A DNA stretch of 64,000 nt. Source: Clostridia bacterium (GTDB lineage: Bacteria > Bacillota > Peptococcia > Peptococcales > BICA1-8). Positions 7,036 through 64,000 of this stretch are shown here, piece by piece. Numbering within the stretch: the stretch's first letter is position 1; every line of letters starts with the position of its first letter. Position numbers and translations under genes: made by a program. The notes beneath the pieces were generated by a model. It was not told the DNA's origin. It did not search any database and saw nothing but the letters and a program-made list of their open reading frames with translations. The stretch spans positions 21 through 64,020 of the forward strand of contig JASKKI010000002.1 of NCBI GenBank assembly GCA_030154225.1, in the 5' to 3' direction.

Positions 7036-7902
7036 TTATTTTCTAAGTCCTTCTGTAATATCATAACCTGTCCATTTTTTGGATATTTTTGTTAAAGTTC
7101 CATCTTCTAACATTGATTGAATAGCTTCATCTAATTTTGCTTTTAATTCCTTATCTTCCTTGCGAACAGCTATACCAATGGTAGCACCTTTATCTGCTCC
7201 AACATCTTTACCTACTTTTTTGTATTTACCGGTTTTAATCCATTCATTAGCCGTAAATCCATCAATAACAACTGCTTCTATTCGACCATTGTCCAAATCA
7301 ATAAAAGCCTGTGGAAACTTGTCATAAAGTTTCATATTTTTATCAGTAAACCCAGCTTCCCGGCATTCTTTTTCCCCGGTACTACCTAGTTGAGTACCAA
7401 TGACCTTATCTTTTAAATCTTCCAATGTTTCTATTTTATCATTATTTTCTGTTTTAACCAAGATCACTTGAGCTGCAATACCATAAGGTCCTGCAAAATT
7501 AACAACCTCTTGCCTTTCAGGCCACATATTCATTCCTGAAATAATTACATCAAATTTTTTAGATAACAATGAGGCCACTACAGTACTCCATTCTGTAGGC
7601 TGCCATACTATTTCCACACCAATACGTTTACTGATCTCTTTAGCCATATCAATATCAAAACCAACCAGTTCACCTTTATCATTTCTAAAGCCCATGGGTG
7701 GATAAGCATCATCTAAACCAGCTACTATTTTACCTGCCTTTTTAACTCTTTCCCAGGAGCCATCTCCTTCTTTCTTTTCTTCCTGTTTTGGTTCTTCTTT
7801 GGGCAGTTCTTTTTTTCCTTCTTCTTTTTTAGCACATCCGGTTATAACCAGTGCTAGTCCTAATAGTAACACTAAAATCCATAAAATACTTTTCTTTTTC
7901 AT
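7036..7902 (-). CDS. Amino-acid ABC transporter substrate-binding lipoprotein
   Basis: Signal peptide plus lipobox (LVITGC), a K/E-rich linker and an SBP_bac_3-like body. Start moved to ATG 7902. Confidence 0.8.
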   Translation of the reverse strand: MKKKSILWILVLLLGLALVITGCAKKEEGKKELPKEEPKQEEKKEGDGSWERVKKAGKIVAGLDDAYPPMGFRNDKGELVGFDIDMAKEISKRIGVEIVWQPTEWSTVVASLLSKKFDVIISGMNMWPERQEVVNFAGPYGIAAQVILVKTENNDKIETLEDLKDKVIGTQLGSTGEKECREAGFTDKNMKLYDKFPQAFIDLDNGRIEAVVIDGFTANEWIKTGKYKKVGKDVGADKGATIGIAVRKEDKELKAKLDEAIQSMLEDGTLTKISKKWTGYDITEGLRK

Positions 7903-8060
7903 CCTTTTTAACCCCCACATGTTATGTTTTTTATTATGTCATTATTTTAACTTGTTAAAGTATTATAGTCAATATTTTTTAAAAAGAAATAAATTATTTA
8001 CTTTTCTAACCAGAATAAAAATTCTTATTTCCAAACACACTAACTATAGGAGGTGCTTTT

Positions 8061-8225
8061 ATGGAAACCAATAAAAATTGGCGAAATAAAAGTAGTTTAA
8101 GGGAAAAATACGGGTTAATAAATTTACTGGGTAAAACTCCTTTGGAAGTTGCCGACCCTATTGCCTATAATCATTACTTTCCTAAAAATTCATCCTCCGA
8201 TAAAAGTCCCGAGCAAAAAGAATAG
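8061..8225 (+). CDS. Small hypothetical protein (54 aa)
   Basis: AGGAGG RBS 6 nt before ATG 8061. Sequence is METNKNWRNKSSLREKYGLINLLGKTPLEVADPIAYNHYFPKNSSSDKSPEQKE. The stop lies inside hairpin AGTCCCGAGC-N10-GCTCGGGACT. Below the size cut-off of the ORF track. Confidence 0.45.
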   Translation: METNKNWRNKSSLREKYGLINLLGKTPLEVADPIAYNHYFPKNSSSDKSPEQKE

Positions 8226-8271
8226 CTCGGGACTTTACATAATAACTAAAAATATGTTATATTTTAGTTGC

Positions 8272-8295
8272 ATATTTAGATGATTATCTAAATAT
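8272..8295. promoter_or_regulatory. Palindromic operator candidate overlapping the arsR/sdpR promoter
   Basis: ATATTTAGA-N6-TCTAAATAT inverted repeat about 20 nt upstream of the RBS of the ArsR-family gene. Confidence 0.4.
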
Positions 8296-8316
8296 CTAAA
8301 AAGGGGAGATGAACTT

Positions 8317-8604
8317 TTGCCACACCAAAATAATGTTTTTAAAGCTTTATCTGACGTAAATCGCAGGAAAATCTTACAGTTATTAAAAGAAAGAGACATG
8401 ACTGCTGGAGAAATTGCTGATTATTTTGACATATCAAAACCTAGTATCAGTCATCATCTCAATTTACTAAAACAAGCCCAGTTAGTTTTAGATGAAAGAC
8501 AAGGACAAAATATTTATTATTCATTGAATACTACTGTATTTCAGGAGTTATTAAGTTTTTTTTTAAACCTAATTGATAAAGAGGAGGCTAAATCTAATGA
8601 ATGA
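8317..8604 (+). CDS. ArsR-family transcriptional repressor (SdpR-like)
   Basis: HTH_20 motif (RRKILQLLKERDMTAGEIADYFDISKPSISHHLNLLKQA). TTG start after AAGGGGAG. Overlaps the downstream SdpI-like gene. Confidence 0.85.
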   Translation: MPHQNNVFKALSDVNRRKILQLLKERDMTAGEIADYFDISKPSISHHLNLLKQAQLVLDERQGQNIYYSLNTTVFQELLSFFLNLIDKEEAKSNE

Positions 8605-10632: not shown

Positions 10633-10725
10633 AATATCTACCCTCATTTAAGCTAATTATAATTGCATTTAAATTAATGATATTAATAAATCAGATTTTA
10701 TCAAAACTTGAGGAAAAAATAAACA

Positions 10726-10817
10726 TAAGAAAAACCGACTTCGTCGGTCTTTGGAGAACCTATAGTAGCTACAGTGCTACCGTGCTACAGAAATAAAAGA
10801 TTAAGATTGAGGTTCGG
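10726..10817. repeat. Intergenic repeat, CTACAG family, copy 1 (with its leading hairpin)
   Basis: AAAAACCGAC-TTC-GTCGGTCTTT, then CCTATAGTAGCTACAGTGCTACCGTGCTACAGAAATAAAAGATTAAGATTGAGG. Near-identical to 21062-21137. Confidence 0.8.
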
Positions 10818-20979: not shown

Positions 20980-21039
20980 CCCGGAACTTAATAAAGAAGA
21001 AATCTATACCCAAAATAAATTAAGTGCCGGGTCATCTGT
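20980..21039. repeat. Stem-loop module carrying the TATACCCAAAATAAATTAAGTGCCGGGTCATCTGT repeat
   Basis: CCCGGAACTTAAT (20980-20992) pairs with ATTAAGTGCCGGG (21019-21031). The right half recurs at 44838-44875. Confidence 0.65.
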
Positions 21040-21061
21040 GTTTATGTGGCTTAATTTTTAA

Positions 21062-21137
21062 GAAAAACCGACTTCGTTGGTCTTTCAGAACCTACAGTAG
21101 CTACAGTGCAACCGTGCTACAGGAAATAAAAGATTAT
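21062..21137. repeat. Intergenic repeat, CTACAG family, copy 2
   Basis: AAAAACCGACTTCGTTGGTCTTT, then CCTACAGTAGCTACAGTGCAACCGTGCTACAGGAAATAAAAGATTA. Confidence 0.8.
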
Positions 21138-44673: not shown

Positions 44674-44814
44674 AGTTCCCCCCCATTTATAAAACTCATC
44701 ATTAAACAGACGTACCTATCTAAAAAAAAGTTTCAATTAATTTTAACATACATAATTTTAAACAAAATTAAAAATCCTTAACGCACATCTTTAACCTTAA
44801 AGGAGTTTTTTAAG

Positions 44815-44875
44815 AAAAACTGGCTAAGTCAGTTTTTATCTATACCCAAAATAAATTAAGTGCCGGGTCATCTGT
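44815..44875. repeat. AAAAACTGGC-type hairpin plus a TATACCCAAAATAAATTAAGTGCCGGGTCATCTGT module (second copy)
   Basis: AAAAACTGGCTAAGTCAGTTTTT, then ATCTATACCCAAAATAAATTAAGTGCCGGGTCATCTGT, matching 21002-21039. It sits in a divergent promoter region, so it does not terminate any called gene. Confidence 0.7.
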
Positions 44876-44922
44876 ATTATACTTGTACAGTATTTGCAAA
44901 ATATTTTCACAATAATTAGTTA

Positions 44923-45006: not shown

Positions 45007-45172
45007 CTCTTATCCAGAGAGGTGGAGGGACTGGCCCTGTGAAACCCGGCAACTGGCCTAGTTATTAGGTGCTGTGCCAATTCCTGCAGGCTTAATTAGT
45101 CTGACAGATAAGAGTGGTCGTACCATGGTTAGTATGCCCTCTTTTATTCTGTTGGATAAAAGAGGGTTTTTT
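45007..45172 (+). promoter_or_regulatory. SAM-I (S-box) riboswitch with terminator
   Basis: CTCTTATCCAGAGAGGTGGAGGGACTGGCCCTGTGAAACCCGGCAAC..GGTGCTGTGCCAATTCCTGCAGG..GACAGATAAGAG (45007-45114), then CCCTCTTTTA-N10-TAAAAGAGGG plus T6 (45137-45172). Confidence 0.9.
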
Positions 45173-47899: not shown

Positions 47900-47950
47900 A
47901 AAACCTGTAAAACAGGTTTTTCTGTACCTACAGTAGCTCAGTGCTACAAA
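47900..47950 (+). terminator. Terminator AAACCTGT-AAA-ACAGGTTTTT followed by CTACAG-family copy 6
   Basis: Hairpin directly after the metI stop, then CTGTACCTACAGTAGCTCAGTGCTACAAAAAAAAG. Confidence 0.7.
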
Positions 47951-48046
47951 AAAAAGTTGCTAATATCTAGTAACTAGTAATTAAAAATTAACATTTTCTT
48001 CTCACCTCACATATAATATTGCAGCATTATTTCAGGAGGTGAGAGT

Positions 48047-61323: not shown

Positions 61324-61555
61324 ATTTATAACCCCCTTTGGTTTTTTACTTATCCCCCATTGGAATTTATCTGTTTTATAACAGCATTTATTAAATGGTC
61401 ATTGTATTATATCATTATAAACAAAACAATTTCTTTTACAATAGATTTTTAACAGAAATAATGTATACACAACAAATATATTGTATACAGTGTTATATAA
61501 TACTTTAAGCTTAAATTATCTGTATTAATTTTAAATTTCGAAAATTTTACACATT

Positions 61556-61783
61556 AAAAATCCGCCTTTGGGCGGATCAGACTGTTGACAAAATATTAAT
61601 ACAAAAACAAACCCTTATGATATATGAAAAACAAAACATTGGCGAGTTAAAATAAATGAAAGCAGATGCTCTAAGATTTGAATTAGGCGAGTTTTGATAA
61701 TTCCTTGGAGCTTTGAGTTCATTCAAAAAATTTGTCTGAGCCTGTGTAGTTTTGATAAATATATGGGGTTTGCCTACAAATGG
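61556..61783. repeat. Structured intergenic element, CAGAC family, copy 1 (terminator hairpin plus about 205-nt body)
   Basis: AAAAATCCGCC-TTTG-GGCGGAT, then CAGACTGTTGACAAAATATT..CAAACCCTTAT....GCTCTAAG..CTTGGAGC....GGGGTTTG. See the findings. Confidence 0.8.
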
Positions 61784-61802
61784 AATCCGCCACTAGGGCG
61801 GA

Positions 61803-62375
61803 TTATTTGTTCCTTGCTTTCCATTTGGGAACAATAGGCAAATCTTCATATTCCTCTTTAAGTATGGCCAAAATCCACAAGTCTATATATTTACCTTCAA
61901 TAAATGAATGCTTTCTTAAACGTCCTTCTGCTTTAAATCCAAAATTAAGTGCAGAGTTTAGACCCAATTCATTATTATCATGTACTTTTAAATAACATTT
62001 TTCAAACCCCAGTTGATAAAAAACAATATCTAGTAGAACTATCATCATATCTATACCATAACCTGCTAAACGTCTATCTTTTTCACCTATTCCCAATACA
62101 ATTTCCGCATTACCATTTTGCCTGTTTATATTCCTAATACTGGCTACCCCAATGGGTAACTCATCCTGTTTTCTGAGTACAATAAAGTTTACTTTGGTAG
62201 CTTTGGGATCATCCAATGTACTTTCCTCACGGATTTCTTGTAATATACTATCTAAGGAAATACTGGAATAGGCATCATACAATTGCCTAAACTCCTTATC
62301 CATATACCACTTTTGTAAAATTGGTGCATCCTTTTCCTGAGGCTGGCGCATAGTAATTTTGCGGCCCTTCCACAT
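61803..62375 (-). CDS. GNAT-family N-acetyltransferase (RimJ/RimL-like)
   Basis: Acetyltransf_3-like (RRLAGYGIDMMIVLLDIVF..LGFEKCYLKV). AGGTGAGGTG RBS. Confidence 0.8.
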   Translation of the reverse strand: MWKGRKITMRQPQEKDAPILQKWYMDKEFRQLYDAYSSISLDSILQEIREESTLDDPKATKVNFIVLRKQDELPIGVASIRNINRQNGNAEIVLGIGEKDRRLAGYGIDMMIVLLDIVFYQLGFEKCYLKVHDNNELGLNSALNFGFKAEGRLRKHSFIEGKYIDLWILAILKEEYEDLPIVPKWKARNK

Positions 62376-62489
62376 TTGTTTTCACCTCACCTTATTAGTG
62401 ACTAGTTTTTTATTAATTAGATTTGTATAATATTTTTCCCCGCTATTAATTAAATTCCTTCTTTCATTATTATTATTTTACCCATATTT

Positions 62490-62700
62490 AAAAAATCGAC
62501 TAAGTCGATTTTCAGACTATTGACAAAATATTGATACAAAAACAAACCCTTATTATTTATCAAAAACGAAACATCGACGTGTTAAAATAATTGAACGCAG
62601 AGGCTCTAAGATTAGAATTAGGAGAGTTTTGATAATTCCTTAGAGCCTTGAGTTCATTCAAATAATTTGTCTGAGCGTGTTTAGTTTTGATAAATATACA
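62490..62700. repeat. Structured intergenic element, CAGAC family, copy 2
   Basis: AAAAAATCGAC-TAA-GTCGATTTT, then CAGACTATTGACAAAATATT.. Collinear with copy 1 throughout. Confidence 0.8.
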
Positions 62701-62731
62701 TCGAAGTTATCTTTCTTCCAGGTTGATGTTG

Positions 62732-63100
62732 TTATTGGGGGAGACAAATATTTTGACCTGCTTTTAGATTATTTGGATTAATTCCGGGATTAGCTTTAAG
62801 AATTTTAGCTACAGTTAGGTTTGTCTCTTTGGCAATTTTATAAATTGTATCCCCAGGAGCGATCTCCCAATAAACACCACCTGGACATTTAGGAAGCTTT
62901 TTTAAATTGGATAAATTTTTCCCACCTTCAGGAATACAAATTTTATCACCTATTTTTAATTTTTCCGGACTAACATGGGGATTGGCATTAATAAGTTCCT
63001 TAAGGGAAACATTGGTTGCTTTAGCAATTTTATAAAGGGTATCTCCTCTAGCTATTTCCCAGTATACTCCGCTGGGGCAAGGCGGCAATTGTCGTTTCAC
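62732..63100 (-). CDS. Tandem LysM-domain protein
   Basis: Two copies of CP.GVYWEIA.GDT.YKIAK.TN...K.L..ANP. GTG start after AAGGAGAG. Confidence 0.8.
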   Translation of the reverse strand: MKRQLPPCPSGVYWEIARGDTLYKIAKATNVSLKELINANPHVSPEKLKIGDKICIPEGGKNLSNLKKLPKCPGGVYWEIAPGDTIYKIAKETNLTVAKILKANPGINPNNLKAGQNICLPQ

Positions 63101-63235
63101 GAAACAACTCTCCTTTAATTATATTTACTATAAATACCTTATGTTTATTAAGAAAAGAATGTGCCAATTTTAGGCTATTTACTAGTTCTAAGATAACTAT
63201 TACTGAGTGCCCCTTATGAAGTATCTGTAAAGGGT

Positions 63236-63410
63236 AAAAAACCGAGCAATGCTCGGTTTTCAGACTTTTGGCAAAGTATTAAGACAAAAAAACCCCTTAT
63301 TATTTATTAAAAACTACACATTAGATTCCTTGGAGCCTTGAGTTAATTCAGAAAATTTGTCTGAGCCTGTGTAGTTTTAATAAATATATATATGGGGTTT
63401 TCTACAAAAT
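63236..63410. repeat. Structured intergenic element, CAGAC family, copy 3 (internal deletion of about 65 nt)
   Basis: AAAAAACCGAGC-AAT-GCTCGGTTTT, then CAGACTTTTGGCAAAGTATT.. It lacks the left half of the inner stem, but its outer stem is nearly perfect. Confidence 0.8.
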
Positions 63411-63436
63411 GTATAGTCTATAGACTATTAGCTTTT

Positions 63437-64000
63437 TTAAAATCTTGTTAAATATTGATCCAGCTCCCATTGGTGTACCTTGCTGCGGTATTGATCCCAT
63501 TCCCATGTTTTAGCATCAATATATCTATTATAAACATGTTCACCTAAGGCCTTTCTGATTACTTCATCTTTTTTAAGCTCCGCAATAGCGGTAATCAGGT
63601 TATGGGGTAAACCTTCTATCCCCCTGGCCTCTCTTTCCTCTTCAGTCATTTCATAAATATTAGCATTAGTTGGTGCAGGTGGTTTAATTTTTTGTTCAAT
63701 TCCATTGAGACCAGCTTGTAAAACAACAGCCAGGGCAAAATAAGGGTTACAGGAAGGATCAGGGTTACGCAATTCAATTCGGGTAGAAGGACCTCTTTTG
63801 GCAGGAACCCTAATTAAAGGACTTCTATTTCTAGTTGACCAGGCAATATAAACGGGTGCCTCAAATCCGGGAACCAACCGTTTATACGAGTTTACAGTAG
63901 GATTGGTGATAGCAGTAATGGCTTTGATATGTTTCATAACCCCACCCATAAAATAATAAGCAATTTCCGATAGTTGTTCTTCACCATTAGGATCATAAAA
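63437..64000 (-). CDS. glnA: Glutamine synthetase type I, C-terminal part (N-terminus beyond the window end)
   Basis: The frame is open from nt 64000: FYDPNGEEQLSEIAYYFMGGVMKH..NPTVNSYKRLVPGFEAPVYIAWSTRNRSPLIRVP is canonical GlnA. The track lists only the part from the first Met. Confidence 0.9.
   Translation of the reverse strand, partial: FYDPNGEEQLSEIAYYFMGGVMKHIKAITAITNPTVNSYKRLVPGFEAPVYIAWSTRNRSPLIRVPAKRGPSTRIELRNPDPSCNPYFALAVVLQAGLNGIEQKIKPPAPTNANIYEMTEEEREARGIEGLPHNLITAIAELKKDEVIRKALGEHVYNRYIDAKTWEWDQYRSKVHQWELDQYLTRF

Follow-up and report, generated by a model that had tools for sequence, protein, structure and literature searches.

A short A+T-rich repeat occupies three consecutive intergenic gaps of a nitrogen-assimilation locus in a 64-kb stretch of DNA from Clostridia bacterium (contig JASKKI010000002.1); we refer to this whole stretch as the window, and all coordinates are those of the window unless a contig is named. 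Genes between 58 and 64 kb lie on the minus strand throughout, and Pfam searches bear out the identities assigned to them in a preliminary description of the sequence. In order of transcription, they are glnA (Gln-synt_N/C; stop codon at 63437-63439), a gene coding for a 122-amino acid (aa) protein with two LysM domains (63100-62732), a GNAT acetyltransferase gene (62375-61803; 190 aa), and a GATase_2 gene (61323-60178), which is the first of a glutamate synthase (gltS) operon and is followed by genes for Glu_synthase, ferredoxin-type, Pyr_redox_2, and GXGXG proteins. Each gap carries one copy of the repeat on the minus strand, all three in one orientation: copy 1 (61578-61783) between the GNAT and GATase genes, copy 2 (62513-62700) between the LysM and GNAT genes, and copy 3 (63261-63411) between glnA and the LysM gene. 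Exact-protein look-ups extended the readable sequence by ~9 kb on each side (~18 kb), for a total of ~82 kb. The host species is also present in more than 20 Logan assemblies of Sequence Read Archive runs, in three JGI metagenomes, and as an NCBI metagenome-assembled genome (MAG; GCA_030446105.1), whose contig JASUSL010000001.1 differs from the window at one of 11,413 comparable bases.

The homology of the three copies, proposed in the preliminary description from inspection, is confirmed by both blastn and nhmmer. Copies 1 and 2 share 90% identity over 187 nt (E 2e-69), copy 1 matches copy 3 in two blocks (E 6e-25 and 2e-12; blastn), and a hidden Markov model built from the three copies recovers these three as the sole matches in the window, even at E ≤ 10 (nhmmer; E values 1e-74 to 7e-42). 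No fourth copy was found in the ~9 kb readable on either side. The motif CAGACTNTTGRCAAA has exactly three mismatch-free occurrences, compared with 0.9 expected. The copies diverge from one another by 10-18% and by distinct indels. Copy 1 (206 nt) is the most complete; in copy 2 the outermost 15-20 nt are gone from one end, the outer 5′ arm of the hairpin (the head) being missing or replaced; and copy 3 has an internal deletion that removes one half of the inner stem, as had been noticed, with a size of 57 nt rather than the ~65 nt first given. The element is thus 150-206 nt long, and with no open reading frame (ORF) of ≥20 aa common to all copies it is non-coding; the longest spurious ORF, used as a query against a protein collection, returned no match and no candidates for further copies.

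Read on the minus strand, a complete copy consists of a head (CCATTTGTAGGCAAACCCC...), a long imperfect hairpin, and a mostly unpaired tail of ~32 nt (GTTTTTGTATTAATATTTTGTCAACAGTCTG), which in copy 1 ends with TTTTGTCAACAGTCTG. Pairs in the outer arms include CAAACCC/GGGTTTG and TATTTATCAAAAC/GTTTTTGATAAATA, and the inner stem is formed by GGCTCTAAG and CTTAGAGCC. The nested imperfect stems drawn on paper hold up well: the bodies fold on either strand with z scores of -4.2 to -5.8 relative to shuffled sequences, and 92.5% of cells are paired, compared with 37-50% when the partners are slid, leaving 13 cells (7.5%) unpaired. With the flanks left out, the plus-strand fold is the better one in copies 1 and 2 (-44 against -31 and -41 kcal/mol) and the minus-strand fold in copy 3. 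Because both strands fold stably and neither is consistently better, the stability reflects a DNA palindrome and is no signature of one transcribed strand. A resemblance to a site for integration host factor (IHF) in the copy 2 tail (TATCAATATTTTG) was rejected, as it is not common to copies 1 and 3, and to our knowledge Firmicutes lack IHF.

Differences between the copies had been said to preserve pairing, and this is so in part. There are two true double changes, C-G/T-A in ATCAAAA/TTTTGAT and C-G/A-T in CTACACA/TGTGTAG; a third proposed example, TGCTCTAAG/CTTGGAGCT of copy 1, has a T-T mismatch at its end as well as a T-G wobble. Changes on both sides affect only 2 of 35 pairs, a number equalled in 225 of 500 shuffles, and the RNAalifold covariation term (+1.48) is a penalty. 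The check on covariation that the preliminary description called for therefore gave nothing above controls (RNAalifold and shuffles), noting that these structure statistics come from five distinct sequences and have low power. Template switching in quasipalindromes can itself yield paired double changes without selection.

On the plus strand each copy is preceded by an A-run, a hairpin, and a T-run, and the hairpin stems are unrelated among the copies, both as first described. On the coding strand, the bodies lie between a stop codon and an intrinsic terminator, and should thus be transcribed in three 3′ untranslated regions (UTRs), again in agreement with the preliminary description. The GNAT terminator (61556-61577, minus strand) has the stem ATCCGCC/GGCGGAT followed by a T-run, and its 5′ foot abuts the tail of copy 1; the LysM terminator (62490-62512, minus strand; AAAATCGAC-TTA-GTCGATTTT) abuts the tail of copy 2; and the terminator downstream of glnA and copy 3 (63236-63260, minus strand; AAAACCGAGC-ATT-GCTCGGTTTT, then a T-run) abuts the tail of copy 3. 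Their folding energies are -12.6, -9.1, and -14.4 kcal/mol for copies 1, 2, and 3, respectively, with a T-run after each. In three of three copies the tail directly adjoins the terminator stem, with a spacing of 0 nt from its own final base to the first one of the stem.

A second ATCCGCC/GGCGGAT hairpin (61784-61804, minus strand; AATCCGCC-CTAGT-GGCGGATT) overlaps the GNAT stop codon and abuts the head of copy 1, such that copy 1 is flanked on both sides by the whole target hairpin, with differing loops. Relatives have one such hairpin, ACCGCC/GGCGGT, where the window has two, and because of this the entire ~20-bp hairpin must have been duplicated along with the insertion of copy 1. As a general rule such duplication was rejected: it fits copy 1, is vague for copy 2, where the similarity is degenerate, and fails for copy 3, whose two flanking hairpins are unrelated. 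A perfect AT-rich palindrome of 16 nt (63413-63428, ATAGTCTATAGACTAT) is found between the head of copy 3 and the stop codon of glnA; it is weak (-5 kcal/mol) and located at the position of the glnA terminator in relatives. It contains AGTCT/AGACT, like the element end, and its halves, AATAGTCT and AGACTAT, resemble the outer end of copy 2, CAATAGTCTG; it could be the footprint of an earlier element end, or could have arisen by chance.

The closest relatives available are four uncultured Peptococcaceae/Bacillota MAGs, here L005, L009, L006, and L007, with GATase proteins 90%, 88%, 85%, and 84% identical to that of the window. The gene order glnA-LysM-GNAT-GATase is kept in L005, L009, and L007, and L006 shows LysM-GNAT-GATase, its contig beginning inside the glnA-LysM gap. 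A search of 80 related loci with nhmmer (E ≤ 1) returned nothing resembling the element, the exact end motif is absent from them too, and Smith-Waterman scores of the copies against the relatives' gaps are within or marginally above the 95th percentile of shuffles and below the shuffle maxima. Nor do the 3′ regions of glnA in L005, L007, and L009 contain the element.

Two of the gaps can be aligned closely enough to reveal the empty sites. Between the LysM and GNAT genes, the lone terminator of L006 and L007, AAAACCTG-CTTAGT-CAGGTTTT, is succeeded by TTAAATGGG; its counterpart in the window, AAAATCGA-CTTAGT-CGATTTT, is succeeded by TTAAATATGGG and has ~190 additional nt directly on its 5′ side. 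The LysM terminator is orthologous to that of L006 and L007, with both loop and 3′ flank conserved. In the GNAT-GATase gap, the GNAT stop codon of L006 and L007 is directly followed by one terminator (ACCGCC...GGCGGT) and then by TTTTTTTGTGCA; the downstream ATCCGCC...GGCGGAT hairpin of the window, followed by TTTTTAATGTGTA, aligns with it, and the element is the extra segment 5′ of it. Further downstream, the gltS promoter region is conserved in the window and relatives. Because the single terminators of L006 and L007 align with those of the window in both gaps, the element is best interpreted as an insertion into pre-existing 3′ regions that would have occurred after the split from the nearest sequenced relatives. 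By the same alignments, at least two of the three flanking hairpins are the host genes' own terminators, outside the repeat unit, and not part of each element as the preliminary description had it.

Outside the elements, a second strain of the host species, represented by contigs L002, L004, L098, L099, and L107, differs from the window at ~0.23% of positions, and within them it differs far more. Copy 1 has five single-nucleotide polymorphisms (SNPs) in 206 nt, ~10 times the background density (binomial P 1.4e-4), and the adjoining terminator loop has a 2-nt insertion; copy 2 has a 48-nt deletion; and copy 3 has a 9-nt deletion in the head, two SNPs, and one indel. Several of the changes break predicted pairs, as in TGTGTAG to TGTTTAG opposite an unchanged CTACACA. 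Judging from these differences, the copies appear to be under relaxed constraint and decaying between strains.

The Logan contigs, assembled with k = 31, also provide a sign of a further copy. In independent assemblies from more than 20 runs, these contigs (L001-L004 and L098-L107) stop at two fixed points inside copy 2, at 62630 when coming from the LysM side and at 62563 from the GNAT side, each 30 nt into the segment 62534-62659. In the second strain the break is shifted by 4 nt, matching a run of k-1 = 30 nt into the shared segment from the deletion junction. Copy 2 has no k-mer of ≥21 in common with the rest of the window, and because the assemblies break in this core, which repeats nowhere else in the window, the breaks are most simply explained by at least one additional copy outside the readable region, with no difference from copy 2 over ~126 nt (62534-62659). 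This implies an extra, nearly identical copy in the same genome or community.

Taking these observations together, we think it probable that the element is a lineage-specific, non-coding, palindromic intergenic repeat, resembling transposable elements of the miniature inverted-repeat type (MITEs) and tolerated in 3′ UTRs. It would probably be non-autonomous, and we infer that it is, or has been, mobile and that it lacks a function. In the scenario we propose, the repeat would have entered the glnA-LysM-GNAT-gltS locus after the species split from its nearest sequenced relatives, each copy landing after a stop codon and in front of an intrinsic terminator already in place, where its tail meets the 5′ foot of the stem exactly. 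Because stop codons, terminators, and downstream promoters stay intact, the insertions would have been tolerated. The copies would be transcribed with glnA, the LysM gene, and the GNAT gene, forming the distal part of their 3′ UTRs, in RNA that can fold as a long hairpin; any effects on expression, through mRNA 3′ end stability, RNase III cleavage, or termination efficiency, would be a by-product, and the copies would now be decaying. The options listed in the preliminary description were structured 3′ UTRs or 3′-derived small RNAs, independent multicopy small RNAs, and a MITE-like repeat, and absence from relatives, position upstream of old terminators, lack of an Rfam match, covariation no higher than in controls, and decay all speak for the last; there is no support for a conserved part in regulating nitrogen assimilation. 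Structured sequences that recur in a striking locus need not be regulatory, and here it is the relatives and the second strain that reveal a recent and decaying insertion.

Several observations weigh against this reading. We directly observed no dispersed copies, all three being in consecutive gaps of one locus within 1.9 kb, which for insertions falling at random among ~70 gaps would be ~0.1% likely; the clustering suggests local hopping, recombinational copying, or selection. No autonomous partner element or insertion sequence (IS) with matching ends was found in the ~82 kb read. The three junctions have no short target-site duplication in common, and the inverted repeat at the extreme ends falls short of significance (head against reverse-complemented tail, local alignment p 0.06-0.17 relative to shuffles); the strong inverted repeat is sub-terminal and asymmetric, with the head arm pairing to an arm that ends 32 nt before the tail end. 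The abutment to a terminator foot in all three cases and the duplication of a whole hairpin at copy 1 fit no known transposition chemistry. Scans of public collections also failed to yield further copies, noting that they needed exact matches of 19-21 nt or high identity and are weak evidence of absence. In view of the clustering, the terminator abutment, the hairpin duplication, and the lack of both a short duplication and a terminal inverted repeat, the element is MITE-like in its behaviour and not a proven MITE.

Rfam gave no match in the region at gathering threshold, in agreement with the earlier failure to recognise an RNA family, and the best matches at E ≤ 10 are far below thresholds and terminator-driven. 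Exact-pattern scans returned no matches in genome_contigs, a collection that excludes this species (best GATase 90%), three in metagenome_contigs, all chance matches in coding sequence, and two chance matches in viral_contigs. A blastn search against plasmids and phages gave no match to the element. One of the two viral matches (contig IMGVR_UViG_3300042731_001526; L109, positions 837-864) has 24-28 nt, GTCAGACTATTGACAAAATATTAA, in common with copy 2 at its left end; on the viral contig this stretch makes up a textbook TTGACA-17-TATAAT promoter, resemblance stops at that point, and the match is probably due to chance.

In its general features the element is a new family of a known kind, the small intergenic repeats. 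It is non-coding and shorter than 500 bp, and has filled and empty sites between related genomes, as MITEs do. Among bacterial MITE-like repeats, many are found at gene 3′ ends, are transcribed together with the gene, and in some cases change mRNA stability, and copies vary by internal deletions (PMC3184786, PMC10969869), and pneumococcal repeats are often bunched at one locus (PMC10969869). Correia/CREE, ERIC, RUP, bcr1, and Chunjie are similarly non-coding, 100-235 bp in length, folded as a long hairpin, and intergenic at gene 3′ ends (PMC3184786, PMC10969869), with variable internal deletions and presence or absence between related genomes. Unlike these, the element has no short target-site duplication, no significant inverted repeat at its extreme ends, and an offset tail of 32 nt; it is known from three copies (plus at least one inferred from the assembly breaks), with no known partner IS, and is without sequence similarity to any searched sequence. 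SPRITEs are also associated with terminator-type hairpins (PMC10969869), but there the hairpin is part of the repeat, whereas here the stems are unrelated and at least two belong to host terminators. REP and BIME sequences are likewise extragenic palindromes of 3′ UTRs that can affect mRNA stability (PMC3184786); however, REPs are 20-40 nt, G+C-rich, and present in hundreds of copies, in contrast to an A+T-rich element of 150-206 nt with few known copies.

Among the alternatives, the one that survives best is an exapted 3′ UTR module or a 3′-derived small RNA (sRNA), in which a common structured 3′ end stabilises the three mRNAs or yields sRNAs for nitrogen control. As the copies lie on the coding strand with a stop codon before and a terminator after them, they are almost certainly co-transcribed, the fold is stable, and the succession of hairpin, unpaired tail, and terminator recalls sRNA 3′ modules; moreover, all three copies seen are in one nitrogen-assimilation locus beside an ANTAR regulator gene, and two base pairs have changes on both sides. 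We nonetheless regard it as unlikely. The orthologous 3′ UTRs of four close relatives lack the element, halves of its stem are deleted in copies 2 and 3 with deletions that vary between strains, SNPs in copy 1 are at least as dense as in neutral intergenic DNA and strain SNPs break pairs, and folding has no strand preference. A scan for RNA-RNA duplexes on both strands against the 5′ regions of 52 genes, including glnA and the ANTAR gene, gave no outlier, the method being crude. GlnZ, an sRNA from the enterobacterial glnA 3′ UTR, offers a parallel in that a structured RNA segment lies between the glnA stop codon and the terminator; our element differs in that orthologous glnA 3′ UTRs do not conserve it, it occurs after two unrelated genes as well, and it decays between strains.

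Two further proposals concern how the repeat spreads. In the first, which takes the place of transposition, template switching or gene conversion at terminator hairpins would have copied a single insertion into the two gaps beside it; such local recombinational copying is a variant of the explanation we prefer. It would account for both the clustering and the hairpin duplication: three copies occupy consecutive gaps within 1.9 kb with none in the other ~80 kb, the same hairpin occurs twice around copy 1, and all copies share one orientation. It appears rather improbable, however, given that divergence of 10-18% and differing indels point to old, independent events, that the assembly breaks imply a copy outside the locus, and that the hairpins on the two sides of copy 3 are unrelated. 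In the second, no less doubtful, machinery that recognises terminator hairpins as structures would mobilise the element, insert it exactly at the foot of the stem, and at least sometimes duplicate the whole hairpin as its target-site duplication, as around copy 1. If true, this would explain the foot abutment in all three copies and the presence of other repeat families beside terminator-like hairpins, and would leave three nitrogen-assimilation transcripts sharing a structured 3′ end that selection could use; should foot specificity and hairpin duplication prove general in this genome, they would point to structure-directed insertion and to a natural case in which several mRNAs gained one 3′ UTR module. 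Class C (IIC) group II introns insert directly beside intrinsic-terminator hairpins, and on the plus strand each of our copies similarly begins 0-4 nt after a hairpin and T-run. Unlike these introns, the element is only ~200 nt, with no reverse transcriptase ORF, no intron RNA domains, and no Rfam intron match.

A cis-regulatory role, with the element as a leader or conditional terminator for the downstream LysM, GNAT, and gltS genes whose body senses a signal or binds a protein, for example the neighbouring ANTAR antiterminator, and thereby governs read-through of the terminator after it, seems very unlikely and is already largely refuted. The arrangement of a terminator and then a gene directly after each body, and the ANTAR response-regulator gene upstream of glnA, would fit such a role. 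However, one conserved body beside three unrelated terminator stems cannot form an antiterminator with each of them, the same terminators are found without the element in relatives, there are promoter-like sites downstream of the terminators (for gltS, a conserved operator/promoter block), and there is no Rfam match to a riboswitch or leader. ANTAR-controlled leaders are said, after work by Ramesh et al. in 2012, to consist of a pair of small hairpins, of which the second overlaps the terminator's 5′ arm; no such dual hexaloop-hairpin arrangement was seen in the element by inspection, and its conserved body cannot pair with three unrelated arms.

The weakest alternative, that the copies are plus-strand antisense RNA genes starting after a bidirectional hairpin and directed against the 3′ ends of the GNAT gene, the LysM gene, and glnA, has a parallel in a clostridial glnA antisense RNA and draws on the better plus-strand folding of copies 1 and 2 and on a TTGACA in the left end, but is hardly credible, with no acceptable -10 at 16-18 nt from TTGACA and none reported there in a promoter scan, TTGGCA in copy 3 and better minus-strand folding of that copy, and the same absence from relatives and decay. 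The conserved TTGACA was itself rejected as a promoter, as there is no -10 element.

Other small repeats are found in the relatives' versions of the three gaps, all unrelated to the element, with no convincing similarity in comparisons with it. L005 (4100-4780 and 5669-5691) has GGCTAATGGTCGATGG... inverted repeats and GTGTTTATCCGTG; in its LysM-GNAT gap another element with inverted repeats, distinct from ours, likewise follows the LysM stop codon and precedes the terminator. L007 (916-1212 and 4407-4506) and L006 (100-260) have units of TTGTCAGACGCAA and tandem heptamers, (CTGGACC)n and (CCACTAG)n, and ACTAGTCAC repeats lie just upstream of the GNAT start codon. The window has further small repeat families beside terminator-like hairpins, at 10722-10798, 21002-21130, 44807-44878, and 47914-47957, with the sequences AGAACCTAYAGTAGCTACAGTGC...GTGCTACAG and a 41-nt unit, ATCTATACCCAAAATAAATTAAGTGCCGGGTCATCTGT, found at two sites with 98% identity. 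Since the relatives' gaps hold unrelated repeats and the window has other families by hairpins, small-repeat turnover in the 3′ regions of these genes is common in the clade. The 185-kb JGI contig of the species ends near 48,019, close to one of these repeat sites.

We also noted features of the locus that are separate from the repeat. The ANTAR gene, coding for a 188-aa Response_reg + ANTAR protein, is directly upstream of glnA (L098, positions 7574-8337; ~1.3-2.1 kb past the right end of the window), and many Logan contigs end at the end of this gene. The spacer between it and glnA is a 198-nt leader with a promoter-like TTGAAG...TATAAT, alternative pairings AUGAGCGC / GCGCUCAU / UGAGUG, and a U8 run; it looks like a glnA leader controlled by antitermination. 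Two TGTATACA palindromes, 20 bp apart (61462-61489, minus strand), lie just upstream of TTGTAA-16-TATAAT, the predicted promoter of the GATase-first glutamate synthase operon. The palindromes are near invariant in L005, L006, L007, and L009, and are probably an operator for some nitrogen regulator. Elsewhere in the window, full-length Rfam matches identify an S-adenosylmethionine (SAM; S-box) riboswitch at 45007-45114 (plus strand, 95 bits) and a thiamine pyrophosphate (TPP) riboswitch at 29088-29204 (minus strand, 78 bits).

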